A stretch of DNA of 64,000 bases from Candidatus Omnitrophota bacterium (GCA_022710715.1 JAKLGJ010000002.1:234171-298170), one strand, 5' to 3'; counted from the first letter of the stretch, positions 8,375-45,200 are shown. Notes: generated from the sequence alone by a model not told the origin. Numbers and translations are program-made.

Positions 8375-8410
8375 TATTTCCTCAAATTTAGATATATTTA
8401 GACAAGCTAG

Positions 8411-8439
8411 ATTATATAGCAATGCTTAAAATTTGTCAA
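8411..8439 (-). promoter_or_regulatory. consensus sigma70 promoter for the TonB_C-OEP gene (TTGACA - 17 nt - TATAAT on the minus strand).
   Basis: Plus-strand ATTATA 8411-8416 and TGTCAA 8434-8439. Confidence 0.6.
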
Positions 8440-9138: not shown

Positions 9139-9237
9139 ATGTATGCCTGGCGAAAAACAATCTGGTTTAAAACAGTAGCCCTGACCATGGTCGGGGTATT
9201 TCTGTTTTCTGAAGTTACCTGGGCTGCCAGGTCAGAT
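9139..9237 (+). other. domain: N-terminal signal peptide / membrane anchor (MYAWRKTIWFKTVALTMVGVFLFSEVTWAARS).
   Basis: Hydrophobic core and AxA-like site. Confidence 0.6.
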
Positions 9238-21200: not shown

Positions 21201-24200
21201 TCTGGATAGCTTTAATAATCTTCCTGAAGCGGAGCGGATGAATCGTCCTCCGATCGAGATCGCCACCCTGTCCGGCCTGGACGGCAGCGTTGGCTCAACC
21301 ATCCGCAGGCTGGATATGGAAATCTCGATGACTGCGGACGCTTCCCGCAAGCAAATGCTCCAGAATGCCCGCAATACGCTGGCGACCACTTTGATTGAAT
21401 ATAACGCCAAGAATATGGCGGAAAAGAACCAGGATAAAGATTTCGATATGGAAAAAGAATTCAAGGATAAATGGACTCTCGTAACCGATCTGATGGAACA
21501 GGATGGCGCTTTCGACAATAAGGCTGCCGGCCTGGCGTCACTTATGGGTGCTTTCTACCCGGCCAGGGACATTTCTACTCCGCAGCTGTTGTTCAAACAG
21601 ATTTACGATACCGCAGAAAAAGCCGGTAAGAATGCCTACGATATGATCGCTGGCTCCGAGGTTCGCATTAACAACCTGTACCGTTCGAATAAAGAAGACG
21701 GGGACCAGTTAAAAGGATTATTCCTGCAGATCGGCAAGCAGGTGAACAATGACAACAGCTTTAAGCTTCCCGAAGAATTCGTGAATATTGGTGAGGATGG
21801 CATTGCCAGGATTAACGAAGCGCAGGAACGGGAAGGCAAAACCGCGCTGGATGCCAAGACGCTTGGTCTTGGCAGCACCGCCGCCAAAAAGGTCCTGGGC
21901 GGATTGTTCGAACATCCGCTGTATAAATTTGCGCAGCAGACCGGCGACGCGGATTTTGCCCGGCAGACCCTGAACAACCTGATGATCGCCAGCTACGGCT
22001 ATACACCGGAAATTTATTCCTTCGACACTATCCTGAATCAAGAGAAGATGGGTTGCGTTATGTATTCTTTGACCAACTATATCGGTATGAGGCTGAATGG
22101 CATCGCGGATGAAGATATCGTGATCAGCCGTCTGGAATCCAGCCGGAACTCCTACAGCCACGTTGTGGCAGGCAACATCTACGAACGCAATGCGGAGAAT
22201 CCCGATGATTATAAAGCCACCTATTATGATCCTACTCCGTTAGGAGTAAGACGCGGACTGAAAGTCGCCCTGGATTTCGGTCAGCTGGCTAAAGATTCCT
22301 CCGCCCCGGATAAATTTGCCCTCAAGGGTCTCAACACCGGCAACGCCTATTTCGATACCTATGATACCATTCGGCATATTTCCAACGGCAAAGGTCCGGA
22401 TGGTCTTTTTGCCGCGATCCTGCGCAACCGTCCGGCAATCATGGAGAATTACCATGCTCTGCAGGCCGCCACACAGCTTGATCCTTATGACATGGGCGCA
22501 AAGAGGAAGTTCGACAAGGTCAACGCGCCGGTAGAGCAATTCAACAGGGTATTGCAGGGTGCTGTGAATAAAGCGAAGGCAGAGGCTGCGGCAGCTGCCG
22601 CAGAATCAACCGAAGCGCAAGATTCCAAGTCTGGTGAGACGCCCGTACCTTCATCCTCCTCGGGGACCCCCGGCTCACCGGCTGTTAACAACGCTAACGC
22701 CGGCAACAGCAACGAAGAAAACGCCGTCGTTACCGATACCGATAGGGGCAACGCTCCTCAAGCAGTCAGCGGAGCAACTGAAGCAGATGTCACTCCTGCC
22801 GCAGAAGAAATCGGCAGCTCACATAATCGCGGTCCTCCGGCAACTGAAACCACTACTTCTTCTGAATCAGAGAATGCAGTGAAGAATGCAGAAGATGAAG
22901 AAAATGACGGAGGTAAGAAATGGTCAAATTCACTTATCAAGAACTCCAGATCAACCATCTGGTCAGCTTCAAGCAGGACGACAGCATACTCGCAGCGTGC
23001 CGAGAGAACGGCAAATCGCGCTTATTCATGGCTTTCCCGGACAGGGTTTACGTCCATACCGCAGGCAATTGGGAACTTCTCGAGGAGACCGCAAGCACGG
23101 ACATCCTTAGCCGGATCCAGCAAGCGGTCCAGCGCGGCATCACTATCTTCCATCTCGACAGCAGCGTCGCGGTCACGCAAGGAAGATTTAACAACTAGCA
23201 GGAAAGTTTCAGCAACCGGCTTCATACCTTTCATAAAGAATCTCTTCCGCGTTGGCGCGTATGTCGCCAACGTGTTGACGGTCATATATACGAAGTTCAC
23301 CGAGCTGCCCATATCCCTATCCACCGTGGCTGGTAGGAGAGAGATTACCGGGCAGCTCATTAATTTTAACGGCCTTAGACAGACTCTCGATCATGCTTCA
23401 CTTTCCGTGGCTGGTGAGGGGCATAGATTTATCGAGAACACTGCTAAGGCCGTGACTATTTTCGTGCAATCACTTCGGCTGCCTGTTGCACTGCTTTCCG
23501 TGGCTGGCAGGCACTTTGCGCAGGCAGCCGGTAGATTTGGCTCCAGATCAAGCGAAATCAAAGCTTCACCTTCCGTGGCTGGTGGGGAGCAAAAGATTAC
23601 CGCTTCTGGAGCCTCTTATTCTTGGTCCGGGTTCAGCCCTGATTATGCATCACTTTCCGTGGCTGGTGAGGGGTATAATTTTGCGGCTTCCCGGACCTCT
23701 TTGGATTATTTTGGGCTGCCTGCATCTCTATCTACCGTGGCTGGTGGAGACGTGCAGGCGGCCTTTACCTTTGGCTCCGGCTTCAATTATCAATTCGCTT
23801 CATCTTCCGTGGCTGGTGAGGGGCAGATTGATGAAGCCGGAGCTTTTGATTCCAACGCGTTCCTGGGTCGGAACGCACAACCGGCTGTCCTGACGTTCAC
23901 CCGGGCGGGTGACGCAGTACAGACGGACAGAACTGTTGTTATGGGCGGCGAAAAAAGAGTCCCTACCTCCGGGAAATCTGACCCCTCTTTGAGTAGTCGC
24001 CCTAACAACGAAATCGGAGGTGTCACATGGTCAAGGTCAACGGGAACTGGATCGAGCTCAAACACCTGGTCGTATTCGACAACGGCAGCAAAATCTTCGC
24101 AGCAGGAAGAGAATGCAGCAGCAACAGCAGAAAACAGCTTCGCTTATTCCTTATCAACGAGCATACCGGCGAGATATTCTCTCGTAACGGCAGAGCAGAA

Positions 24201-27200
24201 TCATGGGAACTGGTCAGCGATTCCGCAATCCGCGACAACATCTCCGGAACCGTCTACAGCGCTTACCAGACCCGCAACATCCCGGTCTACAGGATCCACG
24301 GCGAATTCAACGCATAATATCGGCGGCGCCTTCTTCAGCGCAGCCGCGATGGCGCCTCTAAGCATGACGGTGGTGAATCCTGAAGCAATCACTAACGCAG
24401 GCAACGTAGGGATTGTCGGATTCATCACCATGATCGGCGCGTTCACCTTATCCATACTGTTGAGCGCGCATAAGGACAGCGTCACGGTGATCAGAGCCGG
24501 ATTGATCAGCCTGGCCGCAACCGGGGTTGTTGTGGCCGTGCTGATGTTCGGCAATATCGATCTTGCCGGGATCGCGAGCTACCTGGCGGATTCAGCCGTT
24601 TCCGTCATTTCCAGCCTGCCGGCTGTTCTGGGCGTGGTCGGTTTCGCCGGTAAACCGTCATTCGACAAGGAACTTGACGGCGGCAGATCGCAGAAGCTGT
24701 TCGCGAAGATGACCATTCTCGGGCAGAAGATATTCGAGGCGTTGCAAAAACTGTGGCGTTACGGCGCAGTGGTGGCTATGTTCGGCACCCAGGAAAGCTT
24801 CGATTTGAGAGAAGTTTCCGTGATCCCCGTGGAAGCGAGACGCCGGCAGGAGAACGAATTCGGCGACGGCGGAAGACACGGGAATACCCACAGCGACCCG
24901 TTACGCGCCGTGATCAATGATCCCAGCTTGATGGGCGTAAAGATCAGGGGGAGAGAAGATGATTACGCGAGGATCTTTGCTCTGAAAATCGACATGGCGC
25001 TGGATGCTTTGAAGAAAAACATCGCGCCCCGTACCGCGCTGGTGATCGGCCCCGGTTCTACTGTGGTGGAGCCGCAGACGCTGGCAGCCAGATTCCCGTC
25101 GCTGGCAGATATTTACATGGTAGAGCGTGCGCCTATGAATCTGTCGCTTCTGGGTAAGCAGTATCTCGAGGCATTCGGCGAGTCCACCGCGCGGATACAT
25201 CTTATATACGGAGATGTCCGTTCCTTGCCTTTCGCGGATGACTCGATCGACCTGGCAGTCGGATTCAAGGTTCTGGTCGGCGAAATTTTCAGGGAGGAAG
25301 ACGACCTGCGCTCCGCCTGGAAAGAAACGGAACGGGTTTTGAGCAGCGAGGGGACCGGCATTGTCTATCAGACCCGCTTCCCGGATTTCGAACAGAGAGC
25401 AACGTTCAAATATTTGCAGCTCACGCTTTCTTTAGGACCGGAGCAAGCGAGCTTTAAGCAGCGTATTGCTTACCGCGCGCAGCTGGATGCGCCTGAACTC
25501 AACAGCTGGGCCGGCGACCATATCGGCGATATCGTGGTCTGGACCAAGGCAGAGGACGGCGGCAGAAAACTGACCGACGATGAAGCGATCGCTATTGTCA
25601 GGCAAGCGTACGCCTCCAGAGGGATTTATTTCGAAAAATTAAGCGGCAATGACGCGCAGGAGATTCTCGCGGCAGCGGTTAAGCAGGCGCAGGCAAGAGC
25701 CGACACTATGGCGAATCCGCAGGAGCAGAGCGAATCGCTGCCGGGGCTGTACCGCCGGGCGAATCAGGCTTTGCTGGTCCTGGTGCCGCTCGGATTGATC
25801 GGCCTGGGCGGGGTGATGGCGAAGGATCAACTGCATTTCGCCGAAGAGGGCGATATCGCCAAAGATATCGTCAAAGCTATTTACGCCGTCAGCGCGATCA
25901 ACGACCAGATCAACGAATTCAATCCGCTCATCGCTTCTGCGGCAGTCACCGGTCATCACATCGAATTGGGGAAAAATCCCCGCTGGGAATCATATTCCTG
26001 GGATCTGGATCAGACCACTGATGTCCGGACCCGAGAAGAAATAGTGGTCAAGCTGGATAATAACCAGGCAGGCAATAAAATCGTGGTCCAGTTATATGAC
26101 ATCAACACCCTGGATGACGAAAGCCGGGGTCGTTCCAGCGCGATTGTATTGAACGAGACCGGGGTCCAGGAAGTCCGCGTGCCCATCGACAGTATCATGG
26201 GAGCCAATCGAACCATTATCCGCAGGATCGGCGTGCATGTGGGCCGCGAAGTCTGGGGTCAGGATAACAATCCTGCGACTGCCAGGATCACCGTGCTGGA
26301 CATTGATCTCGCCGGAGAGCGGCCGCTGCCCGGAACCGGCGCGCCTTCAGTCATCCCCGGGTTCGGGCTCTGGGAAGTGTTCGGCGCTTTGATTGCCGCA
26401 ACCGGCATCATTCATTTACGCAAAATTATCTTCACCAGCCCGCAGGAAGATATCGTCAGAACAACCTTAACTGAAGGAGCTGTAGATATCCGCGGGCCTC
26501 CGTCTTCCGACACCGAAACCGATCCGGATGGCGGTAAAGTCACCGCGCGTGACGTCGCAGCCAATGCCGTTATCTTCGGACTCGGGGCTGGAATAATTTC
26601 ACTGATCGTGTCTTTCTTCGGATTGCCTCTGATCGCAGGTTCAGGCGTAGTCGTCTTAGCCACTCTGGCCATAATCGCCGTGGCCTTCGGCGCTTACTGG
26701 TTATTCACCACCAGACTGAATTCCGAGACCACCCAGACCTTTAACCAGGCGTTGAATAAGGCCCTGGAAGCCAACGAAAAATATCAGAAGCTGGATTCGA
26801 AAGAACAATCCAGGATCCGCACTCTGGTCAGAAGAGCCAAAAACGCGCTCTTCATCAAAGATCAGCAGCTGGCTTTCTCCCCGGCAGCCAAATTTCTGTC
26901 CAATCGCGATATCAAAACCGGACGCCTCGCCGGTTACGCTGTTTCCGCAATCGATGCCGTGTTCCAGGTCGTATTCATGCTGGTGCTGTATACCTTCCTG
27001 CTCAAGCATTACCTGGTGCCTTCGGCCCAGGCGATCAACGCGTTTTCCTCCATGATTCCCGAGGATACGCTTGACGCCATGGTCAAAGATGCCATTCGCG
27101 ACCTCAAGGAAAGCCAGCAGCTTTCCCCGGCTATGCAGAAAGCGGTCACCGCCAAAGACATCCTCACCTTAAAAGTACTCTTCGATTACATGGATGAACA

Positions 27201-30200
27201 GATCGATCATTTCGGCGAGCTGACCGTCGAGAATAAACTGTATATCGTTCCGCTGGCTTATTTCGTAGGCGCCAAAGCGTTCTTCTCTCTGGTAACCCAG
27301 AGAATCGTGATCGCCATCGCTTCCGGCTATATCGCCGGTATCCTGCTGCCTCTGGCTATTCCCGCATCTATTCTGACTACGGAACTCTGGTCTACGATGC
27401 TTCCGCTGTCCATCAAATTTACCGTCACGCCGTATCTGATCCTGAACAGCTTTATCGTCATCTATCTATTGAGCCTGCAGCAGCTCTGGGATGCCAACCT
27501 GCCGTTGGTGCGCGCTTTTGAAGCCGGCAGGATCACCGGATTGAGAATGCTTGGCCTGGCCCTGATCAATTCCGCGATCATCCTGATCCCGGGCACAATT
27601 TCGATGATGCTGGTTTCCGCGGAAATCGAAGCCGCTTTAAAAATAAGCGCTCCGTTCCCGTTTCTCAGAGATGCCATGAAATGGATGGAAGAGATTATTT
27701 ACGGCGCCAACGGCAGGACCGGTCTTGGCCAGGCGATCCTGGTGAAGGTAGGCGATTTCCTGGGCATCCAGCTGGTGCCGACGGTCTATGATCCTCTTGC
27801 CGCGGCACTGGGCCGGCCGGATTACCAGACTACCGGAGTATTGATGAATCTGTATACCGGCCAGCAGGCTGCCCAGAAAGCCGGCGATCCGCTGAAAGTT
27901 TCGTTGCTCAACGCGCTTATCCGCGGCGTCGAATCCGGCGATATCAAATTCTCGATCGATAATCCGCTGATTCCCAGCGCCGCCGCCGCCGAGATCACCG
28001 ATGCGAATGTGCTGAAGACCGTAACCTTGCCCCAGACCATCGATGTGGCGGCTGCCGAGAAGTTCATTGCCAACTCCAAAGGCGAATACGGCCTGTATGC
28101 CAGCCATAACGGCGAGAAGGCGGCATATACCTATGATCAGGCGCTGGTGGTGATGACCTTTATCGCCAAGGGCGACGAAGCCAATGCCCGGGCATTGCTG
28201 GATATTTACGCGAATAAAATTCCGAAACACGCCAGCTCCCTGTATTACAACGGTTATTACGCCGACAGCCAGTCCTATGCCGTTCAGGAAGGCATCGTGC
28301 ATGTCGGACCGAACGCCTGGATGGCCCTGGCTATGGCCCAGTACGACACCCGTTTCAACAGCGATCGGTATACCGGAAACATCAAAGGGATTGCCGACGC
28401 GATCAAACTTTACCAGAGACCCAACGGCAGTATTTACGGGGGTCCCACTGTCAGTTGGGTCTCTACCGAACATAACCTGGACGCCTTCGTCCTGTATAAT
28501 TACCTGGCCACCACTTCCGGCGAGGCCAAGTATGTTGAAGCCCGCGACAAAGTCGAGAACTGGCTGCTTACCGAAGCTTACTCCAACGGTTCGTTCTTGA
28601 GAGGCCAGAACGACAATATATTCGCCACCGACACCCAGGCCTGGGGCGCTTCGATTCCTGAATTACCGCAGCAGGTCGATCGCCAGGCATTGCTGGCTTC
28701 CGCCGAGCAGAATGCTCAAGTGACCGTTACCTTCAACGGAAAACAGGTGACCGGATTCGATTACGACCGCAGCTCGCAGCAGGGTACGCCGGTGATGGTC
28801 ACTCCGGAATGGACCAGTGAAATGGTCATTGCCTACGCTATCAACGGCCAGCAGGCCAAGGCCGAAGCGACTTTGAAAGAACTGGCTAAACTGCAGCTGG
28901 CTAACGGCGGATTCCCCTATGCCACCCAGGCGGGCGCCGACACCGGCCACGGCTGGAAGACTCCCGGAACCGGCGGTTCCTTAGCCGGCACCACCTACGC
29001 GATCATGGCCCAGAAAGTATTCAATCCGTTCGACATTTCCGGCACGAGCGTTCCCGCTACTGCGCAGCCTTCTCCTGTGACGACTCCTGTGACGACTCCG
29101 GTGACGGTAACTCCGGTAATCACCGCGCCGGAAACTACCGCGCAGCCTGTTCCGTTCACCACTTTGCCGGTGCCCTTCGTCAACGGCACAATCAATGTTA
29201 CGACCAACTGGACGTTCGTCAATCAAACCGTCAACGGGACCGAGATCAGAGGGCCTCCGGCGTTCAACATTACCGCGAACCAGACTGCTACCAACGCCAC
29301 TTCTTTCGCGCAGGCCGTGTTTACCGACGCGCTGAACGTACATCCGAACGCATTAAGGATCGACCCGGCCGCCGTAGCCAATCTTACCGTTCCCGATGTC
29401 TACACCTTTGCCAACAGCAAGGACATGCTGGTCAGCTTCGACGCCGACCGTACCGACGCAAACACCACCTATATTTATTCCGTAACTCCCGTAGCCAAAG
29501 CGCAGGCCCTGGCGCTGCTGACCGAAAAAGCCAATGCCGCTGCTACTCCGGAAGAACGCCAGTCCTACGAAACCAGGATCGCAGCCTACAACCAGGATTA
29601 CGGCTATACCCTGACGCCGGTGGCCGAGAAATCCTCTTACTCCTCCCAGACTTTCTACAATCTGGACCAGGGCATGTATGTGCTGGAAGTCTGGAAAACC
29701 GGCGTGGATCTTACCGATAAAGACAGTGAAGTCGCTTCTCTGGAACGGGTCACCCAGCCGGTGCTGGTGGATGTGGTTATCGATACCGCCAACCGCTTCC
29801 CGGCCCTGACTACCCACGTGGGGTATCCGGCGGGCGACGGATTCGGCGGCGCCACCGTGGAGAAGATCCTTGAAGTCAACCCCGAGACCAACCTCAAGAC
29901 TACCCGCGACCTGTATACAGTCAGCAGCAACGCGGTGAAACTGAACTTCGATTTCGCCGGCATCAAGGACGGCACTAAGGCCGCAGCGTTGAAGAAAGAT
30001 ATCGCCGGGATGATCGTGCTGCGCACCGATACCGGCACCAGCCGCATCGAATCGTTCGCCGTGCCCAAGTCCGATGCCGCGCAGGTCTATCCTTTCGAAT
30101 TCGTGGATACCACCACAGAAACCGGGCATACCTATGAATATACCGCTTATGTCTACGGCAACAATTACACCAGCAGCGAGGAATCCGAGCCGGTGCTGGT

Positions 30201-33200
30201 CAAAGTGGGCAATCTGGTTGAGCCGATTTCCCAGGCGCCGACGCTGACCGTATACGGCACGGAAGGCAAGCTGCATGTGATGATCGAGTTGACCGAGTTC
30301 AAGGATAAGGTCGGCACCAGGTACAACGGCCCGCTGGTGGGCGCTTACGAAGTCAAGATTATCGATACGAAGACCGGCGTGGAAGCGTTCAGCGAGGTGA
30401 TCGGCGCCAATTACGACGCTTCCAAGCATAACGGCCTCTGGGACGAAGAGATCCGGCCACACCTGGCTCTGGACCTGGGCGCCGGCGATTACGATCTGAT
30501 GGTCAAAGCCTGGGAGCGCAATCCGCTGGAGTACAGCAATTTCAAGGGTTCCAGTCCGTGGGCAGTCAAGCATATTTCCCTTGAAGCCGAGAACGCCTGG
30601 CAGACCAGGATCTACGAGAATGAAGCTCCGTTCTTCACCCAGGAAACCAGGGATATGAAGCTCAAGGACAACACCCGCGATTTCTACGTCACCTGGGATG
30701 CTCCGATGGAAGCGGATTTCGACAATTATATTTTCCAGTTCTCCTTTGACCAGAAGTACTCCACCGACGCCGCTAAAACCTGGTACACCTTTACCCTGCC
30801 CAAGAGCCAGCAGGGCTTCCATGTCGCGGTCATGCCGGAAGACGTGAAGAACTACTTCACCCTGGCTAACGGCGTGTACAGCGGCAAGGTGGACTGGAGG
30901 ATCAAGAACGTCCGCGATACGGATTCCGTCAAGATCGGAGACATCTCCTCGGATTACGTCTTCATGAGCCGCAACCTGAATATTCGCGCCGAGGATGTGG
31001 ATGCGTTCTCGCGGGATATCGCCGCTCGCCAGCATTCTCTCCAGGACGTCGGGTATGTCTATAATTCCATCCCGCACACCCTGCTGGTGGAGAACCGCTT
31101 CAGCGAGACCGAGGACAACAAAACCTATCAGTATGCGCTTCAGCGTAATTACGAGATTTTGACCGGCAACAAGACCGAGCTGTTCAGCAGCGAGCTGTAT
31201 CGCATCGAAGGCAATAAAGAATGGACCTTCATCCACGGTCTGTACCCCCGCGAGAATAAAGAAGCGGTTTTCAACGGCAGGATGACTTTTAGAGAAGCCG
31301 CCACTATGGAAGGGATCAAGCTTCCGGGTTCCATATCTTCCGAATTCCGCGCAATCTATCCCGAAGAGACCGAGTTCAATTTCTACACCGAGACCATCCG
31401 CGGCATGGAGATGTACAAATTCTATCATCCGTCTTATTCCCGTCTGCCGGCTCTGGAATTCACCCGCGACGGCATCTCCGTCTACGACATCGCCACCCAG
31501 GAGAAAGCAGCTTACTACAAGACAACCAGCGACCTGGTATTCAACGAGCATCCCGTCGGAGTTATCCAGGGCGCCGATATGTCCACCGAGCTGATGGCCT
31601 TCCTGGAAGCCAAGGGCGTGCGTATCAACGCCGGCCGCAAAGATAATTTCAAGGCGGTCCTGGATCAGACCATCAGCCTGATGCCCAAGGCGATCATCTG
31701 GGAAAAGGCAGCCTCCAACGGCAAGACTTCGTATCTGATCTACGACAGCATTCATGACGAGCCGGCCATCGTCGTGGACGATAAAGTGTTCTTCACCCAG
31801 GTCCTCTGGAAGGGCATGATTGTGCAGTACGTGTTCAGTAAGGAATACCGCGATATCCCGCAGACCACCCCGGTGATCGCCGACGGCAGCATGAAGGTTA
31901 AGAGCGGGTCGGACTCTTTTGCGGTCAACGTGTGGGATCCGGCGACCAATCAGACTTCTCTGCTGATGCCGGAGACCGTGGTGGATACCTATGAAGTCCG
32001 CGACACTGCCAACAACATTCTCTTCACCGCCTTGCTCGAAGCCAACTCCCAGTTCGGCCGGGTGCTCGCCCAGCAGTCGAAAATGAAAGACGCCGCGGGC
32101 AATGAAGCAACCTATATGTACGTGGTGACCAAATTCTCTGAAAAGGATATCTACGAACCCCTGGAGTCGGTGTTGCTCAAATATAACGCCGGTAAACAGG
32201 TCTGGGAGAAGGTGACCGGGACTACCACCGAAGCCAAAGAATCTGCGCAGGCAGTCGCGCAGTATAATGACATGCCGGAATGGATGCAGCAGGAAGTGGT
32301 TAACGTTACCGCGTTCATCAGCCATACCCAGAAGCCGGCGAACCTGGTCAAGTCCGCCGTGGTAACCACGGAAGGCGAAGTGTACCATACCTGGGTGGTC
32401 GAGGGCGACGCCGAAGGCCGCATCGTGTTCATGGATCGCGGCGGCGATTTCACCTTCAACGCGGATTTCTTCGGCTACAGCAATACCCCGCTGCGCGGAT
32501 ACATCATCAATAAGGCCAGCGGTAAGATCTACGCTTTCGAGAACAAGGACGGCAAAGAATCAAAGATCCTGCTTAACGGCGCGGAGTATATGCTGGCTAA
32601 CGATGAAGATGACGATTTCATGCGCGTTATGTTCCAGGGCCTGGACGCCGCCGGCGCCAGAACCGACGCGCCGTTCTTCAGATGGTATCCGTCGTTCGAT
32701 CCCATCGGCGGAAGATACAATTACGAGCAGAGAGGGTATTTTACCATTACCGGCCAGTCCGCTACCTGGGTGCCGTTCGAGCAGACCGACGCCAGCTGGT
32801 TCGACAACAAATACGTGATCCAGGAAGCTAAAGTCTACAAGCTGGAGATGATGCCCGACAGCAACCAGGTGGAAAAGAGATATTCCCACAGCATCTTTGG
32901 TGACGCGCTGATCTCCAGCACCGCCCAGACCGCAGAACTCCAGGGCTTGGGCACGCTGGCTCGCACCGCTCCCAACGCCGGCGTCCTGGATAATCCCGTT
33001 TACCTGACCGCGCAGGAACAGGTCGAGCTTTCCGATCTGCTTGCCAACGGCTTCCCGGCCCGCAAATCGCCGGTCGAATATGCGAATGGAAACAAACTTG
33101 TACGGTATTATCCTCTGACTTTTGGTCGCACCGAGCAGATTGTGGAAAGCGTTAATGAATACGTCATTAACCTTAACTGGCAAGAAGATCCGCAAGGCGG

Positions 33201-36200
33201 ATATTACGCCAAAGCTGTGGTTCTTGATAAAAATGGTTTGGGGGTTAAGAAGGTAATTTCTACTCCATCAAACCAAGTGGTCTATGGGGAATTGGTGAAT
33301 AATACTATACGTGTAGCATACAATGTCGCAACGCATGAAGATTTAGACGGATATATTCATTCATATGCTCAAGCATATGGAGAGAATGGGGATGAATTGG
33401 CTTTACGTCAGAGGATCATTTATAAATTCCTTCCTATTTCGGGTGAGGATCAGACTGCTAATTTAAGCACTGTCGCAATCCCGATGCAACAATATTATTT
33501 GGCGCAGGATCAATTTGCGGATTCACTCATAGAAAAGAGTCCGGTTTCGGAAAGGGAAAGCCAAACCACAGTTAAAATATGGCAATATCGTTTAGAAGAT
33601 ACCTTTGGTATTATGCCGCGAGCTGTTTCTTACTCCAGCGAAGAAATCGAATTGGTCGAATTTGATCATAAACAGAAAGAGGTTGGGTTATACAATACAA
33701 CAACCGCGACAATAGAGACAATTCCGGTTAATCAAATATCGCCTTTTGACTATGCGCTGGTTTATAACGTCCAATCTTTGAACGCAGAAAAAGTTTCTCA
33801 TCAAGAAATCCGGTTGCCTAATAATGTGAAAGTTCAGGATATTTACGAATCCCAAATCGGCCGCGCGGTCAATAAGTTGCCTTGGACGTCCGGCACTGAA
33901 ACTATACAGTATAACCGCGATCTCCCCTACGAAGATCCGGTGATATCGTTTAATAGGGCCACCGGCCAGTGGACCAAGAAGTGGGATCGGAAGATTTACG
34001 ATCCTAGCAAAGAGGCGTACGCGGAATTCAAAACAACCGAACGTGAGCTGCAGGCCCCGGATAAAGTTGCCACTTGGACTCACACATTTGATGTGTACGG
34101 TAAGGAAAAACTTCATAAAGACGTAATTGGGGATGCGTCAAGAGAAGTCGTGGCCGGAATTAATTCTTTGCTGGGCAATGTGTGGCTATTGATGGCTTTG
34201 GCGGTGGGGATCGTAACATGGTTAAGTATTCTCTTGGGGGTTCCCCGCATAATCAGATGGATGAATGAGGGCAAGAAAAAGCAAGGTGTTCGGTCCGAGA
34301 TTGACTCGGCGGATATCGATTCAACGGATGCAGCAGCGGACCAGCGTTTAATTAATCGGGATATGATTCTTGAAGTGTTGGAATCATTCGTTAATAAAAA
34401 AGGTGAGATCAAGAATAACCTGATTATAATCGATGCCATGGAACGAGTTGGTGCTGTATTGCCGGCAGATTATAGCCTTGAAGATATCGAGAACTTGATG
34501 GGTTACGAAGCGCCGATTAAAGATTTGAAAGAGTGGATCACCCGCAATAGAAATGAGGAGTTGGCTGCTTTGTTGACAAAGGCCAATATTAGCGCCTTCG
34601 AATTTACCGTATTGACACTTGTCATTTATAGCATCGGTAAAGAATACAAATATGCGAATCCCCCGGTAATGTATTATCTTATTGATAAAGCAATCAGAAT
34701 GATTATTCAGGGCAAACGGAACGAGATAATTCCCGAAATCCGTTCTGATGTAGAAGCCATGAGAGATTTCTTGAACAGAAGCTATCCGCCTGTTCCTCAA
34801 GGCGGTATGAGCAAAGATTGGTTGCGTCGATATAGCAGTATTGATGAAAAAGGGCGAAAGAAGGAAGAATTGCGCGGCGGTTTGTATGAATCGTTCCTTA
34901 TGAGCGAGCGCAGCGGTTTGACTGTAGCGCAGAAGGCAACGTTGAGGAAAGATTTGGAAATTTTGCGCGCTCATGAAGCCGCGATGGATGATCTCGATCG
35001 AGAAATCGACCTGTTAAAACATCAGAAAGAAATTACTGCCGGGGAAAAAGATAAGGATAATCTAACCGTACAGATTGACAAGTTATCCGGTCAGCAGAAA
35101 GCGAACAAGGATATCAAGGCAGCCATAGAAGAGCAAATTAGGAATCAATTCTGGCTGAATCCCATTAAGAAATACTACGTTACATTTGAAGATCTCGAAG
35201 ATCGGTTGAATGGCTATAAAGAAGATTTTGATCTGATTGCTGAATGGGATGCGCTTGAAGGCAACAGTAAAGAAGACAAGAGAGACTATCTCATAGGGAA
35301 AGGATTGAATTTAAAGACTTATCCGGATGAAGTCGGAATCAGACAATTCTTAAAGAATATCTGGCCTGTTATTATTCCGGTTATTCCTTCGGTACTCGCG
35401 GTTACCTTTGTGCCATTGTTTGTGTCCATGCCTTGGGGGTTGCTAATTGCGCTTGGGGTTGCTTTAACTGGTTTAATACCTTTAATTAAAGGGGATTTGG
35501 GCTACAGCAAGAGCATGGGGCCGCTTTCTTTCGATCAAACCCGCCAGATAAGAAACACCTACATTGCGTTTACTTTGTTTACTGTCGGATACACCGTATG
35601 GAATTTTGTGTTACTTTCGTCATCTTATCCGGTTGTGGGGACGATTTTGTTGACTTTTAACCCCGCCTTAATGGTGACTACAATTATGATCTTTGGGTTG
35701 GTTTATTTCTTCTCTGTTTTGGCAATTTGGGCAATTATGCCGATCATTCTTACTCAATTTGCCTATGTGCAAGGAAAAATTGACGGGATTGGAGCGATTA
35801 GAGATTGGAAAGAAGCGTTGCAGCAAGATAATATTAATGCAGCTAAGAAGCGATTTACGAGTTTCTTGCCAAACCAGTTAAGAACGCGGTCTGACGACCT
35901 GTGGAATGTTTTTGTAGATACGTACATCAATAAGATGGGAGAATTTAATAAGATTAGAGCTGAAGATAGGGAGCTCTTAAAGAAGATCCTGAAAGCAGAA
36001 AAATTAACTGAAATAGAAGTCGCGCAGAAAAATAAGATGCTAATAGAAGGTTTGGGCGATAACGAGGCACATGATAGAATACGGCGATTTATTGGAGCCT
36101 GGTTTATTGAATCTCCAGTGTCTTTTATCTGGGACGAATGGCCCATGTTAACAGCGATTATTACTTGTTTTGACGAAGCAATTATTACGGAATTCAAAAC

Positions 36201-39200
36201 CCTCAATTCTTTGCAGAATGGAACCGTTCCCCTGAATTGGTTTATTAAAACTTATGGGCGGGATTGGGTGAATTTTGTCAATACCCTGCCAGAACCGGCC
36301 AGAGGAGTGCTGTTAAAGCATTATGAAGAGAATGTCAAAAAAGGCAAGTTGTATATTCGACTTGAAGGTGATTATATAGATGCAACGCTTGAGGAACAAA
36401 TTGTAAAGTGGGTTGGTCTCCACTTTATTCGTCCGGACAAAAGTCTTGCCGAAGCGAATGAGATGTACGCGGTGTATAAATTCTGGGCTATGGCGAGGTT
36501 CTTTGAAGGGAAGAGATATGAAGAATTAAACGAAGAAGACCGAGCCTACTTAAATGGCAAGATTAAAGAAAAATTGCAGATATTGCTCATATACGAAGCT
36601 TATGAATTCGCATCCTTTGTAAATAGAATGGCGTTAATACAAGCTTTGGCCCAATATCCTTTCACTGAGCTTTTCCTGGGATATGGGAAGTTGTATCAAA
36701 TCAAAGAAAGTTATATTGGGCAATCTTACGCAGAGATAGTGGCAAAAGGAAAGCAATTTAAAAAAGAGGTTCAAGAAAGAGATGAATTCTTAGAAGAAAT
36801 TAACTCCAGCTTGGGCGAATTTGGTCCGCATGCAGCGGTCAAACCAAACCGCATCATGAAGGGTAAGACTATTGGACAGAATGCCGGAACTGAATATGCC
36901 AGAGGCGATGTTTGGATTTTCTTTGATTCCAACGCTTCAATGAGATTTGAAGAACTCATAAGAATCCCTGCAGCTTTGGCTGAATTCAAGAGAAATCCCC
37001 GGGTTAAGCTGGTTCTTTTCGGAGAATACATTAATACCAAAGAATATTCCTGGATGGCTGGGTGTTTGGCGTTTGGCGAAGAAGCATGGACCCAGGTAAT
37101 GCAGCGCAGCCTGGATTCTTTTGGGGCTTGCGGATTTTATGGCCACAGTGCATTTATCAGGGCTGATGCAATGAAAGCCGCTGGCGGATTGTTAAGTTTC
37201 TACGCTTCTGAAGACTTGCTTTTAGCTATACGCTTATGGGGCAATGGTTCTTTAACCGCTCACAGAGAGTATATTTTGTTTGGTAAAGGAAGAGAAAGAG
37301 GGTATATCGCTTCGAATGTTCCGCTGGGAAGATGGTCGGAAGGGTCGTCAGAGCTGATTCTTGGTCGACAGGTGCAGCGTGCCCTGAAGGGAAATAATTT
37401 GCACATGGGGCAGAAGATGATGCTGATCTATGCTTTGTCTTTCTTCTCCAAGAAACCTTTGGTCATCGTTGCCAATAATTTATATCTATTCTTACTTATC
37501 TTCCTCGGTTTCAGTCCGTTTATTGGATTTCCGTTAGCATTAATGTTCGGAGTAATAGGAATACTTATTTCTCAAGCTATCAATACAACGGGATTGCTTT
37601 ATCTGATTGAGAATATGGGGGTGTGGAACGGAACTATTGAATTTTTGCATATGTTCCCCAAACTGTACACGTTCTTTGTTGCCGAAATCACGCCGTATGC
37701 CCAGAGATTTCTTAATGGCGCTATTAGTGGCGCCAGCGGTTTTGCTATGAGCTTACGTGGTTTGGATTTGGAATTCGTGAAATTCGATGATATCTGGGTT
37801 AACGCGACCACAACGCCTTTACGGCATACTGCTATTGCTACTATTATTTTGAGCAGCTTTTTGTTTATCGGTTCAGCAGTAAGTTTCCTTGCCCCTGTTC
37901 TTCCCGAGATACTTTTAATTACTCCTTTAATCCCGGCCATCACTTTACTGTCGATCATAGGTCTGGGAATCCTTCCTATTGTGGCTGTGGCAGTGTGGCA
38001 TAAATTGTTCCTCGGTCCCAAAGGCGTAGCGGTAAGATTGCAGATGACTTTGTCTATTCCGATGATGGCTTATGTTATCCTGGGCATCTGGTTCTGGGGT
38101 GGTGTAGGCACGAGTTTGGCTTTTGGATTCGGATGGCTGGCTTTATTTGCGACGTTATTCATTTATGGATTTGGTAGTTTTAGAGACAACAAAGTAATCA
38201 GCATGGGTGGCTTACTGCTATTCTTAGCAACCATTGCACTTACTACTTATTTTATCGCTCCCATATTCTTGCTTTTCTCGTTCTCCTTGTTTTACTTGAT
38301 CATGCCTTTTGACTGGTTCTTCATGCCGATACTTGCTCATCCAAGGATGCTGCATAATTTTCGCTATTGGAGAGCCAACGAACGGTATCTTAAGGAGATC
38401 CGGAATTTGGCGCGAGATGGGAAAGTGATTAAAGAAATGACCTCAATAATCATGGCGACCCAAGAATATGCGGAGCTTGCCCAAGAAGGAAAAATCATTG
38501 ATTTGTTTACGAAAGAACTCCCCAGGGTCCGTTCGTTAAAGGATGATTCGATCTGGCAATATCTGTCTGCGCAATCGCAGAAATATTTGGTTGCAATAAC
38601 CGGGAATCAAGAAAAAGAAATTCGCGCTAAATTCTTCTCAGAACTGTTGGCAATTGAAATTGAAAGCAAAGGAAAAACAGTGACCATCTTAGACCGCGAA
38701 ATCAACTTGAAAGGCAAGAAAGATACCATTGCCCAGATAGTTCAGGCGCGAGTAAAAGAGTTGTTGGAGAGAAACAAGGTGGAAACATTTGATGCCGCAT
38801 TGCCTGATGCTCAGGATGTCGAAGTTACTATGGAGGCCGAAAAAGGCAATATTCTTGACGTTATGATTCCTGCCGAGCTAACCCAAGGAATGGTTGCCGA
38901 TATCCAGGATGCCGTAAAAGAAGGCAGAATCAGCATTCATGGCAAGTCAGGCGATATCGAGACACCGGAGAATATTCTTACCGGGGTGGATATTAGCGTC
39001 AAAGATGACAACGACGGTGGAACTGTTTCGGCCATCTTTTATGGAATAGGGATGTTAGCCGAAGACATCATCAGCATTTATTTCTGGATGCCCTTGATTG
39101 CTGCAGCCATCGCGGGGGTAACTATATATGGGATTTTGCAGCTTTTGTTATATCCCGGCAGAAGAACAGAAACCTTATTTACTATTCAGAGTTTTAAGGA

Positions 39201-42200
39201 TTGGGGCATATGGTTTATAACTGGTCTGACCGTGGGGACTGTTACAGCACTGTTGAGATATGCTTTGCCAATGGGGTGGGGCATGGTGAACGCGGGCAGC
39301 ATATTTATTTTATCACTTGAACCCGGCATCGCTTGCGGGGTTGCGGGTATCCTTTTAGCTAGAGAGCTGAAGAAATATACCATTAATAAACCAGCTTCTT
39401 CTTTGCGCCATCAACTCCCCTATAAAGCTCTTTCTTTGCAGGGAGTTTTAGTTATGATGGGTGGATTTATTGGGTTAGTTTCTGGGACAATCTTTGAAGC
39501 GTTAATAAGCACGCATTTATGGACAGCCGATCCGCTCGATTTAACAATATTTACTGTCTTGCAGATTTTGTCGCCGATTCTGGGAGCGTTGTTTGGAGCC
39601 AAGATCAGCGGTTTATTGACCAGACCCCTTGCTCCTTCAGTCAACACGGCTACTTCTTCCCGTGAAAATGATAATGATGGAGGCAAAGCCCAGCTACGAA
39701 AAATTATAGCGACTATTCTTGCTGCTTGGAAACACCTTCAAGACACCGTGATCAGCACTTTCGGTGCATTGGTAACTACTCAGATGACACTGACGCATAT
39801 CAAGCAGAATCCAATGTACAGCGATCTGGATGTCGACGTGATAGTTCGCAAGATCGAAGTCGGACAGTTGGAATTGAGAGGCGAGGACCTTGATATCGTG
39901 GATGAAAATGATCAGCCGATAGCCGCGCTAGACAGGAATATCGCGCATGAATATGGATTGGCGCATAGGGCTGCTAATGCTATGGTAGCGATAGTCGAAA
40001 ACGGAAAGCTCGAATTTGTACTGCAACGCAGAGCTCATCATATCAAGAGGTTCCCGTTGCACTTATCGCTCTACGGAGGGCATGTGACAAGCGGTGCGAC
40101 GTACCAGCAAACGATCATTCACGAGATACAGGAAGAATTATTCCGGGGACAGGTGGCGGGCTTGAAGGGTACATTCAAGGAGATCGAGCTTAAAGACCGT
40201 TATTCCAAGGATCCGGAGAACAGGAACAATGAATTTCGCAGGCTTTATGTTTATGTGACAGCGGATGCTCAAGAAATCGGCATTATTCGTGCATACGCCC
40301 AGGAGCTCGATGAGAAGAAAAAGACCCTTACTGCAGAAGAATTTAAGCAATGGCTGGAAGAGGAAGCTCAAAAAGAGGGATATGGCGAAATCTGGAGCAT
40401 GCTTTTTGTTGACCTGCAGACACTTCTTACTGCCCCAGAATCGGTTGAAGAGAACCAGCCGGCAGCTAATAAATATATTGACCTTAAAGCAACAGATAAG
40501 TTGGCAGGATTTGAGCAACAGGAAGCAGGGCAGTATGCTCATGCGCAATTTACTCCCGATCTGCTTGATCCGTTGTTGAGGAATGGAGATGTTCTCGCGG
40601 TTTTAAAACAACTTGAGCCTGGTATTCCTGGGGCCGTTTCTGCGGTAGGAACAACGTTTGAATCAAAAGCGAAACCCGGCACGGTTCCCATGGAAATTCA
40701 TTTTAAAGTTGATTTGAAAAAGCTCCCGCCTGGAACTTACGATGCGCTAGAGATAGTCTGGGGCAACAAAAAACGCACCATTACCTTGCCGCAATCTATT
40801 GAAATCAAAGCGAACGTTGAGGAAGCCAAACAAGAAGCACAACCTGATAAGCAGGCTCCTCCTGAGAATGTCGCCGAGCCCATTGTTAATGAACAGACTT
40901 CAAGAGATCATTCAAAATCAGGCAGCATGGAAGGTAACGACGGCGGCGAGATCAGGACCGATAAGACCGAGATCAGGATGATCGAGCAGTGGGAAAAGAG
41001 ATTTGATGCCGAGACGGATGAAGATGTTCTGCGCACATCCGAGCCTAGATTGCGCTATGATCTCACGGCGTATCCCAAGATCGCGCAATTTGTTCCCGTT
41101 ACTCCCGGGAGAATATTGGAAGTGGGATCGGCCAGCGGGCGTTGGTTGTTACGGTTCGCCGGGCTGCATAAAGATTATGAGGCGTTTGGCCTGGATGTCT
41201 CCCGGAAATTATCCCAGGTTGCCAGAAGAGGCGCTTTGTTAAGAGAATTTCTCAATGTGGATATCGTCAAAGCCGATGCGTTGAATATTCCTTATAAAGA
41301 CGATGTTTTCGAGGCAACCACATGCTGCGGATTGATTGAACATTTCAAGCGCGAAGAGCAGCTAAAGATTGTCCGGGAAATGGTCCGGGTAACCCAGCCC
41401 GGCGGAGTGATTATCGTCGCCACGCCGAATTATTATTGCCCGTCCCTGATCGTTTCCATGCTCATAAGCGGCCTGGACTGGAGAAATGTCGAAAAACGCG
41501 AAGGCTGGAAGAAATGGACGTTCGGTTATGAACAGCCGCAAAAGCCCGAGGTTCTAATCGGCATATTGAAAGAGCTCGGATTGAAGGATATCGAAGCCGA
41601 TGGTTGGCTGCCGTGGTACGGGCTCGAGGGAGTGCGCAAATGGCATGAAGACACGGGCGCCGTTACATTCCCGTGGTATGCGCCTTTCTTGAAGCGTTTT
41701 GCGCAGGTATTAGATCTCGCGACGCCTTTCCTGGATACGATCTCGCATAACAGATTTTCTGCCCGGTTTGGATATGAGATCGTGATTAAGGCGACTAAGG
41801 ATGTACAAGACGGCGGCACGGCCGGAAAAATCGACATCGTTTCCCGCCTGATCGCGGCCTGGAGAACGCTGGTGGATGATTTTGAAAGCACCTTCGGCGC
41901 AGTAATGATGATGTTCGGCCAGCAGAGTGTCGTTCGGGTTCCTTCCTGGAGCGATGTGATAGACGGCGGCATGACGGTTGAAGACATCCGGATGCTGGAA
42001 GCGGCTCTGCGGATTGCGGAAAAGAATCGCAGCGCCGAGAATAAGCATGCCGTGGGCGCGGTCATATTCGACTCGAACGGACAACCGGTAGTGACCGCTA
42101 CCCGTGAGATGATCGCGGACGGCATCTATCAGCACGCTGATCGTCAGGCTATTCTGGAGGCGGATAAATTAGGGATCAAGGATTTCTCAACATACACCAT

Positions 42201-45200
42201 GGTGCTGACTGCCGAACCGTGCCAAACCTGCGCGCATTGGATCGCCCGCCGTAACTTCAAGAAGGCTATTATCGGTACCCTGGATACCAACATGCTGGAT
42301 ATTTTCGGCGCAGGGGTAATGATCCTGCGGGAAGCCGGCATTGAGGTGGCGGTTGCTCAAGGCGAGTTGCAGCGCGAGAGCAAAGCTTTGTTTACCGAAG
42401 ACCGCACGGTGGCTCAAGAGCAGAAGGACAATATGGCGTTGAGCCCGAGAGAACTTGAAACGCTTATTGCCGCGATGCTGGAATATCGCGCTAACGGCAT
42501 CTATCCGCTTTCGCCGGAAGTGGACGCTTTGATCAACAAAGCGCTGCACGCGGATTCGAATTTCATCCTCGGCCAGATCCAGGCTGCGCGCCGCGAGAAT
42601 AATATCGTCCGGTTCGAATATTTAACGAAACGCTTAGGCTGGTTGATGAACCCCCTGAATGCGCTCTATGCTTTTGACGCCGATCTCGAGAAAACCGAAG
42701 AAATAGAGCACCTAATTTTGAGACAGCGGATCCGCGGCGCCGGCCCGGACATGGCTGTTGCCATGGTTGTAGGTTCGATTGCTGCGCGGCAGGCGTTCAA
42801 AACAGCTTTACTCAACGGGAACTATTTTGCTCCGGGACACGTTTTCGAACTGGCTAACTTGGGCAAGCCGGGAGAAGAAGGGATTAATGACGGCGGCAAG
42901 CTGAACGAGGAAGAGTATAGAGATGGTTTCCGGTCCCTGGTCGGCCTTACTGCGGAGCAGATTGAGCAGAGACTGCATTCCGGACGGGTGAAATTTGATT
43001 CTAAGACACTTGAACCGATCGATTTTGCCGGAACGTCGGTTATCTTCTTCCTGGAAGACGCGCAACTGGTGGCTCAACTGCAGAAGAAAGCGCAGCAGTT
43101 CAAGGACGCACTGCGAGACGCCGGCCTGGACGATAAGTTCGCCCTGGTCAGTTTCGACTCGTTCCATGTCACCACATTCGATCTGGTCTGTGTCGAGGAT
43201 ATCAAGAAGAAAGACGGCCAGCGGGATGACGCTTTATACGGCCAGGTGTTCCCGGCAGTCAAAGCCGCGGCCGGCGCATTCATGAGCCGTGAGCCGCTTA
43301 AGGATATCAAAGCCCAGGTGACCGGTATTTCGATGTTCGCGCCTATCGTGTTGAAGCTGGCCGTGCAGATCGGCGATGCGGATCAGGCGGAACTGATTGA
43401 TTACCGGATGAGGCTGAATCAGGAACTCACCGGCATTCCCGGCTATCCTCGCAGCGCCGAGTGGAACCCGGGATACTCCGCGCATATCACCTTCGGTTAT
43501 ACCGTCAACCCGATGAACGAGCGGGAGATCGAGAAGTTTATCGCTCTTCTGAAGAAATTCAACGCGGAGTTCGAGCCGATCGCATTCGTGATGAATAAAG
43601 GCCGGGTGATGGATTTCTCGGATATGGACCATTTCTTTGATGGCGGGGATGCGACGAAAACCAGAAGCGCTTCCCGGCTGGTCGCGGCCTGGAGAACGCT
43701 CTGGGATACGTTCGACAGGGTCCTTTTCGGCGCGCTGGTGATGACCTTCGGCCAGCAGACCCGCATGCAGGATTGGAATATGATCAGCATGATCGGCAGT
43801 TACAGGACTTCCGGTCAATTCGCAACCCGAACCGGCGAGTATTCGCAGATCCAGGATATGCTGGAGCATAGTGTGATCGCGCGCGGGCCTCCTGCTGCCA
43901 GCGCCTTTTCCTATTCATTCGCATATTCAAATCCCGCGAACATATTTACCCGCTATTCTACCGGCGAATCCCTTCCTTATGACGGTCGCTCGCTGCCTTT
44001 ACGGCCTGACGCGAACGTCGATGATTTCACCTTTACCCATATACCTCTAATTACCATAAAGCAGGCTCCGACTTCCTCTACCGTGGCGGAGATGATTTCG
44101 GGGCCTGCTGGTAATTTGAGGGATCTGATGGACGGCGGCATTGCCCGGCGCATCGCGCAATTGCGCCAGGATTGGCATTTACCGTTCACCGACCAGGAGT
44201 TGCAGGCGCTTGACGCCCGTTATGCGCGGTTTACTTCCGCATCGCCGATATCCGCAGCGGAGCACGCAGCTGCACAGGTTTCCCGCCACCAGCGGACCAT
44301 TGCTCCCTTTGAAGGCGTAACTTTTACCGGCACAGGTTGGCATTCAGGCAAACAGATATCGATGACGCTTAAGCCCGCTCCCGCAGGGACCGGGATCGTA
44401 TTCGTACGTACCGATCTGCCGGGTCGTCCGCAGGTCAGGGTTATCCCGGAGAACGGCAAACAGATCTTCAAGACCGTGGCTCTGGAAGAGAACGATGTGC
44501 GCGTGCTCACCGCAGAGCATTTGCTCGCCGGCCTGGCCAGTCTGGGCATCGACAATGCTTTCATCGAGCTTGATTCAGAAGAAGTCCCGATCATGGACGG
44601 CAGCGCAATAAGCTACAGCTTGCTGGAGCTGCGCGCGCACGAGCTTATCCGCGAATTGGATGCGGACAGATCGATTGTTCCCGGTCTCGCTTCTCCGGTT
44701 ATCTACTCCAAGGAGTTCGATAACGGAGCGGTAGTCGCTCTGCCGTCGCAGGAACCGGGTTTGAAGCTTACCTATATAATCGACTTCGGTCCGCAAAACG
44801 AAATCGGCGGACAGGCGATCAGCCTGACCATCACGCCGGAGATTTTCTGGAATTATATGGCATTCGCCCGCACCTTTGTGGTGGAGAATCCGGAGATCGA
44901 CGAGCTGCGCAGATTCGGTTTCCTGCGCGGAGCAAAGCATAATACCACCGCGATCTTCGTGCCCGAGCAGAAGGTTCGGGGAGAGAAGAGGTTTGACCGG
45001 ACAGATGCGCCGGTGCTGCATAAACTGCTCGATCTGTACGGCGATCTGCAGGTGCTGAACAATCGTCTCGAAGGCGTGCATGTCATCGCCATTGAAGCCG
45101 GACACACCGATCATCTCAATTTTGTGAAGAAGCTGGATAGAACGCTGCGCGCAGAGGAATCCCGGCCGTTTACCGCCGAAGATGTCGCGCGGGTCAGCGA

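Follow-up and report, generated by a model that had tools for sequence, protein, structure and literature searches.

The giant gene and its locus

The window analysed here is a stretch of 64,000 nucleotides (nt) from Candidatus Omnitrophota bacterium (GCA_022710715.1, JAKLGJ010000002.1:234171-298170), in which a giant open reading frame (ORF) combines a glycosyltransferase (GT), many membrane helices and a long series of enzyme domains. Frame 1 of the plus strand is free of stop codons from nt 9103 to 64000, that is, over 54.9 kb or 18,299 codons, whereas the remaining frames carry 142-1,188 stops each, of all three stop kinds. The likely start is the ATG at 9139, the first ATG of the frame, with GAGGG located 7 nt upstream, and five neighbouring genes have start motifs similar to this one. 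From this ATG, the window contains at least 18,287 codons, and in public assemblies the product is far longer than 30,000 amino acids (aa), namely 54,154 or 54,149 aa on two long contigs.

The locus was compared with four public loci (ENA ERZ27257456, ENA ERZ761563, NCBI GCA_035453765.1 and JGI 3300009776). Where they overlap the window, for 14,135 bases, these independent assemblies show no mismatch, and two of them carry the full gene, called at full length. Therefore, the frame is real and not an assembly artefact. In addition, one upstream protein occurs unchanged on ten public contigs, and HRZ14058.1, HRZ14060.1 and HRZ14057.1, which NCBI names Candidatus Omnitrophota bacterium, have the same sequences as the upstream proteins. 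No internal repeats or paralogous modules were found within the part of the ORF that lies in the window. The features of the gene are listed in Table 1.

Table 1. Features of the giant gene within the window. Charge: Lys+Arg on the N-terminal face : other face, counted in the loops (for long loops, 15 residues on each side).
Feature	Position (strand)	Charge	Remarks
Giant ORF	9139..64000 (+)		Runs off the window end; likely start ATG 9139
Sec-type signal peptide	9139..9228 (+)		MYAWRKTIWFKTVALTMVGVFLFSEVTWAA; read from sequence, depends on the start supported by a Shine-Dalgarno motif
Peptidase_C39 (PF03412)	10876..11238 (+)		34 bits; Cys in PPCGAVAL, His in QGHYVTV, Asp in YCDATG
Cluster A0, 3 helices	24403..24651 (+)		Predicted out to in; 4 helices if the weak segment at 24319 is counted
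S-adenosylmethionine (SAM) methyltransferase domain	25081..25359 (+)		Used as cytoplasmic marker
Two helices, 25762-25824 and 26362-26430	25762..26430 (+)	6:2	Loop of ~180 aa between them, predicted on the outer side
DGG motif	26527..26535 (+)		N-terminal limit of the super-module
Cluster A, 7-helix bundle	26563..27618 (+)		N-terminus predicted in, C-terminus out
Putative extracytoplasmic domain, 2,187 aa	27619..34179 (+)
GH76-like (alpha/alpha)6 part	28000-29052 (+)
Pro/Thr linker	29050-29472 (+)		10 N-x-S/T
Beta-rich part	29500-34122 (+)
Helix B, single	34180..34245 (+)	4:6	Predicted out to in; followed by RIIRWMNEGKKKQGVR
Putative cytoplasmic segment, 364 aa	34246..35337 (+)		Kept in P0001, P0009 and P0037
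Cluster C, 4 helices	35338..35757 (+)	12:0	Ahead of the catalytic domain
FKS/GT48-like (GT2-fold) glycosyltransferase	35758..37404 (+)		Predicted cytoplasmic; motifs FFDSNAS, SED and GRWSEG
Cluster D, 8 helices and interface helix	37405..38334 (+)	17:0	After the catalytic domain
Charged tail, predicted cytoplasmic	38335..39012 (+)		Ends at DGG 39013-39021
Cluster E, 4-6 helices	39025..39606 (+)	16:0 (6 helices); 13:4 (4 helices)	Separate DGG-bounded unit of 221 aa
DGG motif	39676..39684 (+)		Predicted cytoplasmic enzyme series begins after it
NUDIX, methyltransferase, cytidine deaminase, 2H phosphoesterase, LpxC, ArnA/Fmt-like formyltransferase	39979..46326 (+)
LpxC	44293-45135 (+)		193 bits
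Two-helix hairpin	47176..47319 (+)	4:0	Predicted to bring the chain back to the same side
Phosphoenolpyruvate (PEP)-synthase-like domains, adenosine deaminase, P-loop kinase, PGI, SIS	48550..63327 (+)		No credible membrane helix

A probable glucan-synthase-like super-module

An earlier reading of this DNA, made without database searches (hereafter the sequence-only reading), had noted five hydrophobic helix clusters between 26520 and 39650. Scans with the Kyte-Doolittle (KD) and Wimley-White scales recover all of them, at 26.56-27.62, 34.18-34.25, 35.34-35.76, 37.40-38.33 and 39.03-39.61 kb (cluster A, helix B and clusters C, D and E in Table 1), and add clusters beyond that span at 24.4-24.65, 25.76, 26.36 and 47.18-47.32 kb. 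The noted region contains 15 non-overlapping 19-residue segments with KD of at least 1.9, compared with 3.1 on average and 8 at most in shuffled sequences (n=300), and the same threshold yields none in the first 5,000 aa and one in aa 10,183-18,299. Helix B has the highest hydrophobicity of any segment in this region. In total, about 33-36 helices are found over nt 24.4-47.3 kb. The clusters are conserved among homologues, and they are genuine membrane helices. Weaker peaks occur at aa 10770 inside a methyltransferase, at 17492 beside the PGI match and at 18099 just past the SIS match; these are probably buried cores.

The stretch before cluster D matches PF02364 (Glucan_synthase) with 44.2 bits, above the gathering cutoff of 37.2. 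The GT region also matches the cellulose synthase BcsA (4HG6) with an E-value of 1e-5, pairing FDSNA with FDADH and sED with tED, while GRWSEG is aligned with GRWATG within QRGRWATG of BcsA. An exhaustive HMMER search with aa 8740-9790 returned 250 homologues, unlike a word-indexed protein search, which gave no matches for two queries of ~1,050-1,100 aa. D536, E631 and D632 are nearly invariant in a 44-sequence alignment and are present here. Based on this alignment, an AlphaFold model was obtained with a predicted local distance difference test (pLDDT) of 82.9 and a predicted template modelling (pTM) score of 0.86, while pLDDT is 40 without the alignment. The number of helices in clusters C and D, which is ambiguous from the hydrophobicity scales, is settled by this model: four membrane helices precede the catalytic domain, and eight plus an interface helix follow it. 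The best PDB fold matches of the model are FKS1/FKS2 (E 7e-20, TM score 0.50), and then cellulose, hyaluronan and chitin synthases; against 9WZV, 8JZN and 7XE4, the E-values range from 7e-20 to 1e-11 and the TM scores from 0.44 to 0.52.

The window shares with FKS1/FKS2 (GT48; 7XE4, 8JZN and 9WZV) a catalytic domain between helix bundles as well as the ED and RW motifs, at 13-14% identity. FKS1 has 6 + 11 helices, so its helix bundle is larger and differently arranged than the 4 + 8 modelled here, and the ectodomain of 2,187 aa, the N-terminal 7-helix bundle and the embedding in a giant bacterial ORF are seen in the window only. On this helix count, the domain is classed as FKS-like and not as an FKS orthologue. 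As for BcsA, it resembles the window in the sequence of the catalytic motifs and in the four helices ahead of the catalytic domain, whereas four helices follow in BcsA and eight in the window. In the BcsA system, BcsB supplies a large carbohydrate-related part in the periplasm, with one helix as its anchor, and an equivalent part is fused in the window; however, this ectodomain is GH76-like and beta-rich rather than BcsB-like, and precedes the synthase in one chain. No BcsB-like match was found in the ectodomain, and no Pfam match to PilZ in the tail at nt 38335-39015.

Some of the homologues are complete stand-alone proteins, such as P0003 (961 aa), P0006 (1,447 aa), P0008 (3,065 aa) and P0009 (3,131 aa), which score 87-101 bits on PF02364. 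They share with the window the succession of a signal anchor (in some), a GH76-like ectodomain, a helix, a cytoplasmic segment, four helices, a PF02364-type GT and 8-10 helices, with 26-37% identity. For example, P0009 begins with a signal anchor and an ectodomain of 1,600 aa, continues with one helix and 300 aa, and then has four helices, the GT and ~10 helices; the order of the parts in nt 27.6-38.3 kb of the window is the same. The stand-alone proteins are complete and have their own start, whereas the window copy has a 7-helix bundle in place of the single anchor and is joined in frame to other units on both sides. In P0021, helices 3-7 of cluster A are kept, as is the junction to the ectodomain, with 33% identity.

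For the N-terminal part of the ectodomain, the family profile matches GH76 alpha-1,6-mannanases with an E-value of 2.5e-9, Pfam Glyco_hydro_76 is matched by five of the eight aligned family members, and the GH76-like domain occurs together with the GT in at least 14 homologues, including P0008 and P0009. Sequence searches of the PDB gave no match to the GH76-like part (queried as a single sequence) or to the beta-rich part, and Pfam has no family for cluster A, cluster E, the tail or the small DGG units. The sequence-only reading had described 29.1-34.1 kb as rich in NxT and in beta structure. The former is true of 29.18-29.46 kb, with 10 sites in ~100 aa, whereas the next 1,541 aa contain 8, roughly as many as expected by chance; the latter is supported at the level of composition, with a ratio of beta- to alpha-formers of 0.85 compared with 0.5-0.6 in the cytoplasmic parts.

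Taken together, nt 26.5-39.0 kb (aa 5812-9970) probably constitute a single glucan-synthase-like membrane super-module within one giant gene, with a self-consistent topology; this judgement is a joint one, covering both the identity of the super-module and the topology described below. The continuity of the ORF, the domain identities, the fold, the homology to stand-alone proteins and the charge bias are shown directly, whereas the side that each part faces, the odd or even helix number of clusters A and E and the product of the enzyme are inferred. If it works like FKS1 and BcsA, the super-module would polymerise sugar from a cytoplasmic nucleotide-sugar and push the chain outward through its own helices, after which the GH76-like and beta-rich ectodomain might bind this product or remodel it outside the cell membrane. 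What is new here is the assignment of the 13-kb stretch to an FKS-like synthase super-module that carries a GH76-like ectodomain, followed by a small helix unit.

Some observations concern the composition and the relatives of this region. GC content is 0.42-0.44 at 34000-40000, the half of the super-module with the cytoplasmic segment, the GT and the helices, compared with 0.50-0.58 on either side, the ectodomain half included; the dip may reflect a mosaic origin. P0007/L006, among the closest relatives of the low-GC part, comes from a contig with 33% GC. In P0021 (3,046 aa), a cluster-A-like bundle and the start of the ectodomain (residues 931-2103) come after the GT module, not before it, so that super-modules may occur in tandem in other giant proteins. 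A metagenome scan with a closer alignment returned a single 4-kb contig, and a scan of genome contigs returned a Nanoarchaeal PEP synthase only. In the closest relative (L006 1-670, from a 4-kb metagenome contig), the GT frame has nine stops in its first ~65 codons and becomes open only midway through the cytoplasmic domain, so that the four helices ahead of it are missing; a frameshift, a truncation of the module or an error in the assembly could explain this.

Membrane topology and the downstream enzymes

The catalytic domains of FKS1 and BcsA are cytoplasmic. If the GT domain of the window faces the cytoplasm in the same way, so does the segment that links helix B to cluster C, and the 2,187-aa segment ahead of helix B is outside. 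The extracytoplasmic location of 27.6-34.2 kb, most of which had looked extracellular in the sequence-only reading, thus follows from the position of the GT domain, and it requires that the helix count of cluster A be odd. The 4-6-helix unit at 39.0-39.6 kb comes next, and in the rest of the window only the hairpin at 47.2 kb is made of credible helices. The predicted number of crossings of each unit after nt 24.7 kb is even; therefore, the chain would return to the cytoplasm after each unit, including clusters D and E, and all the nucleotide-dependent enzymes would lie at the cytoplasmic face. The charge bias of clusters C, D and E (Table 1) marks this face as cytoplasmic.

The enzymes were identified by Pfam and NCBIfam matches. 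LpxC, PGI and the kinase, which had been noted downstream of the clusters, are indeed found there, with Pfam matches of 193, 36 and 39 (AAA_17) bits, respectively, and PPDK_N with its mobile domain reaches 281 bits. An alignment with the P. aeruginosa enzyme shows that LpxC retains both the zinc ligands and the catalytic residues. There are two SAM methyltransferases. LpxC, the formyltransferase, the PEP-synthase-like domains, the kinase, PGI and the other enzymes would accordingly be cytoplasmic but tethered to the membrane, and we think it likely that this single, simple topology fits the whole chain. The parity and charge-bias argument for cytoplasmic enzymes is new here.

It should be noted that the enzymes are of types normally found in the cytoplasm and that a single chain would have large domains on both sides of the membrane, as the sequence-only reading had stated. 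However, the puzzle or 'unprecedented' envelope-spanning assembly which it considered dissolves into recognisable modules with even helix numbers and a simple topology, and an architecture of this kind has been published as the hallmark of Omnitrophota giants. The same reading had also coupled a placement of all enzymes on one side with hydrophobic segments that are buried cores; the enzymes are predicted to be on one side, whereas the clusters are real membrane helices.

Several points weigh against the proposed super-module and its topology. The sidedness was derived from hydrophobicity scans, loop Lys+Arg counts and the GT model, rather than from a dedicated topology predictor, and the giant gene is known here from its sequence alone. 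The odd count of cluster A depends on parity and a weak bias (10:5 for 7 helices, 10:4 for 8), and cluster E read as 5 helices also has a strong bias of 14:2. The DxD motif reads DSN, with Asn for the second Asp, although this is also the family consensus. In published surveys with TMHMM and DeepTMHMM, many enzyme domains of related giants are placed outside (10.1101/2023.11.21.568195; 10.64898/2026.06.07.730766). Finally, the N-terminal 5,000 aa have a topology that hinges on where translation starts and on some weak hydrophobic segments.

As to the start codon, public gene calls begin at three other codons downstream, 9817, 9832 and 9877, all without a Shine-Dalgarno motif. These starts delete the signal peptide and would alter the side of the membrane predicted for the C39 domain and for the first 5,000 aa. 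As to the weak segments, those at nt 13144, 13858 and 15463 are possibly overlooked helices. The first 2,000 aa are rich in Ser, Thr and Asn and have 32 N-x-S/T sequons, whereas aa 2001-4500 (15103-22602) are highly charged, rich in alpha-formers and have none in 2,500 aa, compared with ~13.5 expected from composition. If the three segments are helical, aa 2001-4500, the DGG at 22906 and the 4-helix reading of 24.3-24.65 kb (Lys+Arg 9:0) would all be cytoplasmic.

Among the enzymes, one DGG-bounded unit (44131-47424, aa 11677-12774) contains the intact LpxC, the ArnA/Fmt-like formyltransferase with its N- and C-terminal domains and the two-helix hairpin, and looks like a membrane-tethered set for lipid-A-type sugar modification.

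DGG sites and possible processing of the chain

The tripeptide Asp-Gly-Gly (DGG) occurs 26 times, compared with 4-5 expected (P 3e-13), and is the most over-represented tripeptide after aa 4500, where the expectation is 4.1. It is absent from the first 4,600 aa, and the 26 sites span 22906-60885 of the window (e.g., 24676, 40939, 48496 and 58312). Asn occupies position -1 in 9 of the 26, acidic residues are found at -2/-3, and Lys, Arg or Thr at +1. None of the sites is within a Pfam envelope (P 0.01), and several lie 4-15 aa ahead of the deaminase, P-loop kinase and PPDK_N domains, one of them reading DGG/MTVED. The DGG motifs at 26527 and 39676 bound the region noted earlier, with a further one at 39013. 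The coincidence of module limits with DGG is a new observation of this study.

In a relative whose GT module is 53% identical, and which lies on a contig with 33% GC, three DGG motifs come directly after that module, 240-300 aa apart, and are encoded by other codons, GATGGTGG. Therefore, the signal resides at the protein level, and a purely nucleotide-level signal is ruled out. An internal Shine-Dalgarno sequence (GGAGG) is ruled out as well, because most sites read GACGGCGG. More distant homologues mostly show no enrichment of DGG downstream of the GT module (24 observed, 17.9 expected), and no other punctuating tripeptide was found in other lineages.

The codons used, GAC-GGC-GGN, are far above what codon usage predicts. 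In 40-64 kb, GAC is used in 17 of the 19 sites (background 41%) and GGC in 18 of the 19 (background 52%); the 19 copies of the frequent form given above are on the plus strand, all in frame 1, while 2.7 are expected over both strands. The relative uses GAT-GGT-GGW, and GGY encodes the first Gly at 23 of the 26 sites of the window and at all three of the relative. Avoidance of GGAGG-like sequences is one possibility to explain this bias.

Then, could the chain be a polyprotein, cut after DGG into ~25 or more products within the window, with the helix clusters becoming independent membrane proteins and the enzymes soluble ones? The over-representation of DGG, its absence from the first 4,600 aa, its avoidance of Pfam envelopes, its occurrence ahead of domains where native N-termini would fall, and the recurrence in the relative with different codons all point this way, as do the DGG limits of the noted region and the stand-alone homologues of the module it encloses. 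The separate products which the sequence-only reading had envisaged would have candidate limits at 26527 and 39676. The chain also carries a domain of the C39 (double-glycine) peptidases near its N-terminus, the sole protease domain observed, in which the catalytic Cys, His and Asp are present and the oxyanion Gln is replaced by His.

However, the comparison with known C39 systems is imperfect. Like the bacteriocin systems and the peptidase-containing ATP-binding cassette transporters (PCAT), the window has a C39 domain with Cys/His/Asp, and its Gly-Gly recurs at unit boundaries; but in those systems C39 is part of an ATP-binding cassette (ABC) exporter, whereas that of the window is not in an ABC transporter. 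Double-glycine leaders have a hydrophobic register at -4/-7/-12, while the DGG sites lack it and are mostly preceded by Asn or Gln. Moreover, since the C39 domain follows the signal peptide, it is predicted outside, mostly across the membrane from the DGG sites, 25 of 26 being predicted inside; the two would share a compartment only if the chain re-enters the cytoplasm between C39 and 24.3 kb, or if the true start is downstream of 9139. DGG could also be merely a conserved inter-domain joint, most distant homologues show neither its enrichment nor another punctuating tripeptide, and the case has been built from sequence. Weighing both sides, we regard a polyprotein as possible though rather doubtful. 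It is compatible with the topology proposed above and differs only in the later fate of the chain.

A more far-reaching version, put forward tentatively, would be a 'one-gene proteome', in which dozens of once-independent proteins have been fused in frame, punctuated on the cytoplasmic face by a DGG signal specific to the lineage, and released by a putative Gly-Gly-specific protease. Its content, on the same tentative footing, would be a complete FKS-like glycan synthase with its ectodomain, together with housekeeping-type enzymes such as LpxC and PGI. If true, this would represent a bacterial cellular polyprotein strategy with defined cleavage sites.

Relation to known Omnitrophota giants

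The gene is an Omnitrophota giant of the 'Archaeovorin' or multi-enzyme type, a class already described. West-Roberts et al. (2023; 10.1101/2023.11.21.568195) reported Omnitrophota giant genes with numerous membrane regions, an N-terminal C39 near signal peptides, and glycosyltransferase, methyltransferase, NUDIX, PGI and PPDK domains, and considered localisation predictions unreliable and cleavage points unknown. Nielsen and Lui (2026; 10.64898/2026.06.07.730766) collected 916 such proteins, with a 'multi-enzyme metabolic cluster' class and a class with signal peptide plus transmembrane topology, and, from DeepTMHMM, assigned the metabolic content of their largest example to the periplasm. 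The window gene has in common with this type the Omnitrophota host, the length of more than 50,000 aa, the signal peptide with C39 nearby, the many helices, and glycosyltransferase, methyltransferase, NUDIX, PGI and pyruvate-phosphate-dikinase-type domains. Most members also have a divergent SecA_DEAD, plus HEAT repeats; no Pfam matches to SecA_DEAD or HEAT were found in the 18,299 aa of the window, which represent about one third of the gene. An FKS/glucan-synthase-like module, LpxC and DGG or double-glycine punctuation are mentioned in neither preprint.

The two preprints disagree on, or leave undecided, the membrane side of the enzyme domains and the cutting of the chain (10.1101/2023.11.21.568195; 10.64898/2026.06.07.730766). 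The localisation of the enzymes is acknowledged there as unresolved, whereas the module parity in the window argues for a cytoplasmic enzyme face. The enzyme domains might instead be displayed in the periplasm or on the surface and act on host or prey material, which would agree with the published predictions that put most domains of related proteins outside, with the signal peptide at the start of the protein, and with the cultured relatives being epibiotic or predatory according to the survey papers. However, the GT is homologous to FKS1 and BcsA, whose catalytic domains are cytoplasmic, the even helix counts put the downstream enzymes on that same face, and the charge ratios of 12:0, 17:0 and 16:0 mark it as cytoplasmic. 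In addition, the enzymes require adenosine triphosphate (ATP), SAM, uridine diphosphate (UDP)-sugars or acyl-UDP-N-acetylglucosamine, and West-Roberts et al. (2023) themselves termed such localisations 'highly unlikely'. External display is thus improbable in our judgement. An artefact, whether an assembly chimera or buried cores of soluble domains mistaken for helices, is to be dismissed almost entirely: the weaker peaks in or beside soluble domains and the different start codons of public gene calls would fit it, but four independent assemblies agree over the shared 14 kb, two with the full gene, the 54.9 kb is stop-free while the other frames are full of stops, clusters C and D supply the membrane helices of an FKS-like fold that was modelled with confidence, and the helix clusters are kept in homologues.

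The window may serve as a worked example of how a helix-rich stretch resolves into a module of known fold with free-living homologues, by which all downstream parts are assigned to the cytoplasmic side, and its DGG sites are concrete candidate boundaries within Omnitrophota giants. If the cytoplasmic reading is general, these giants would be membrane-tethered (or polyprotein-encoded) biosynthetic machinery, not displayed degradative enzymes, and the proposed role in predation would change.

Other features of the gene and its neighbourhood

Cys is nearly missing from the first 9,000 aa of the frame (nt 9103-36100; n=5), and the enzyme part has 0-4 per 500 aa. Upstream lies a divergent gene at 6407-8422 (-), in whose product a TonB C-terminal domain is joined to an outer-membrane channel of the TolC/OEP type; with the N-terminal C39 of the giant, it is reminiscent of parts of a type I secretion system.

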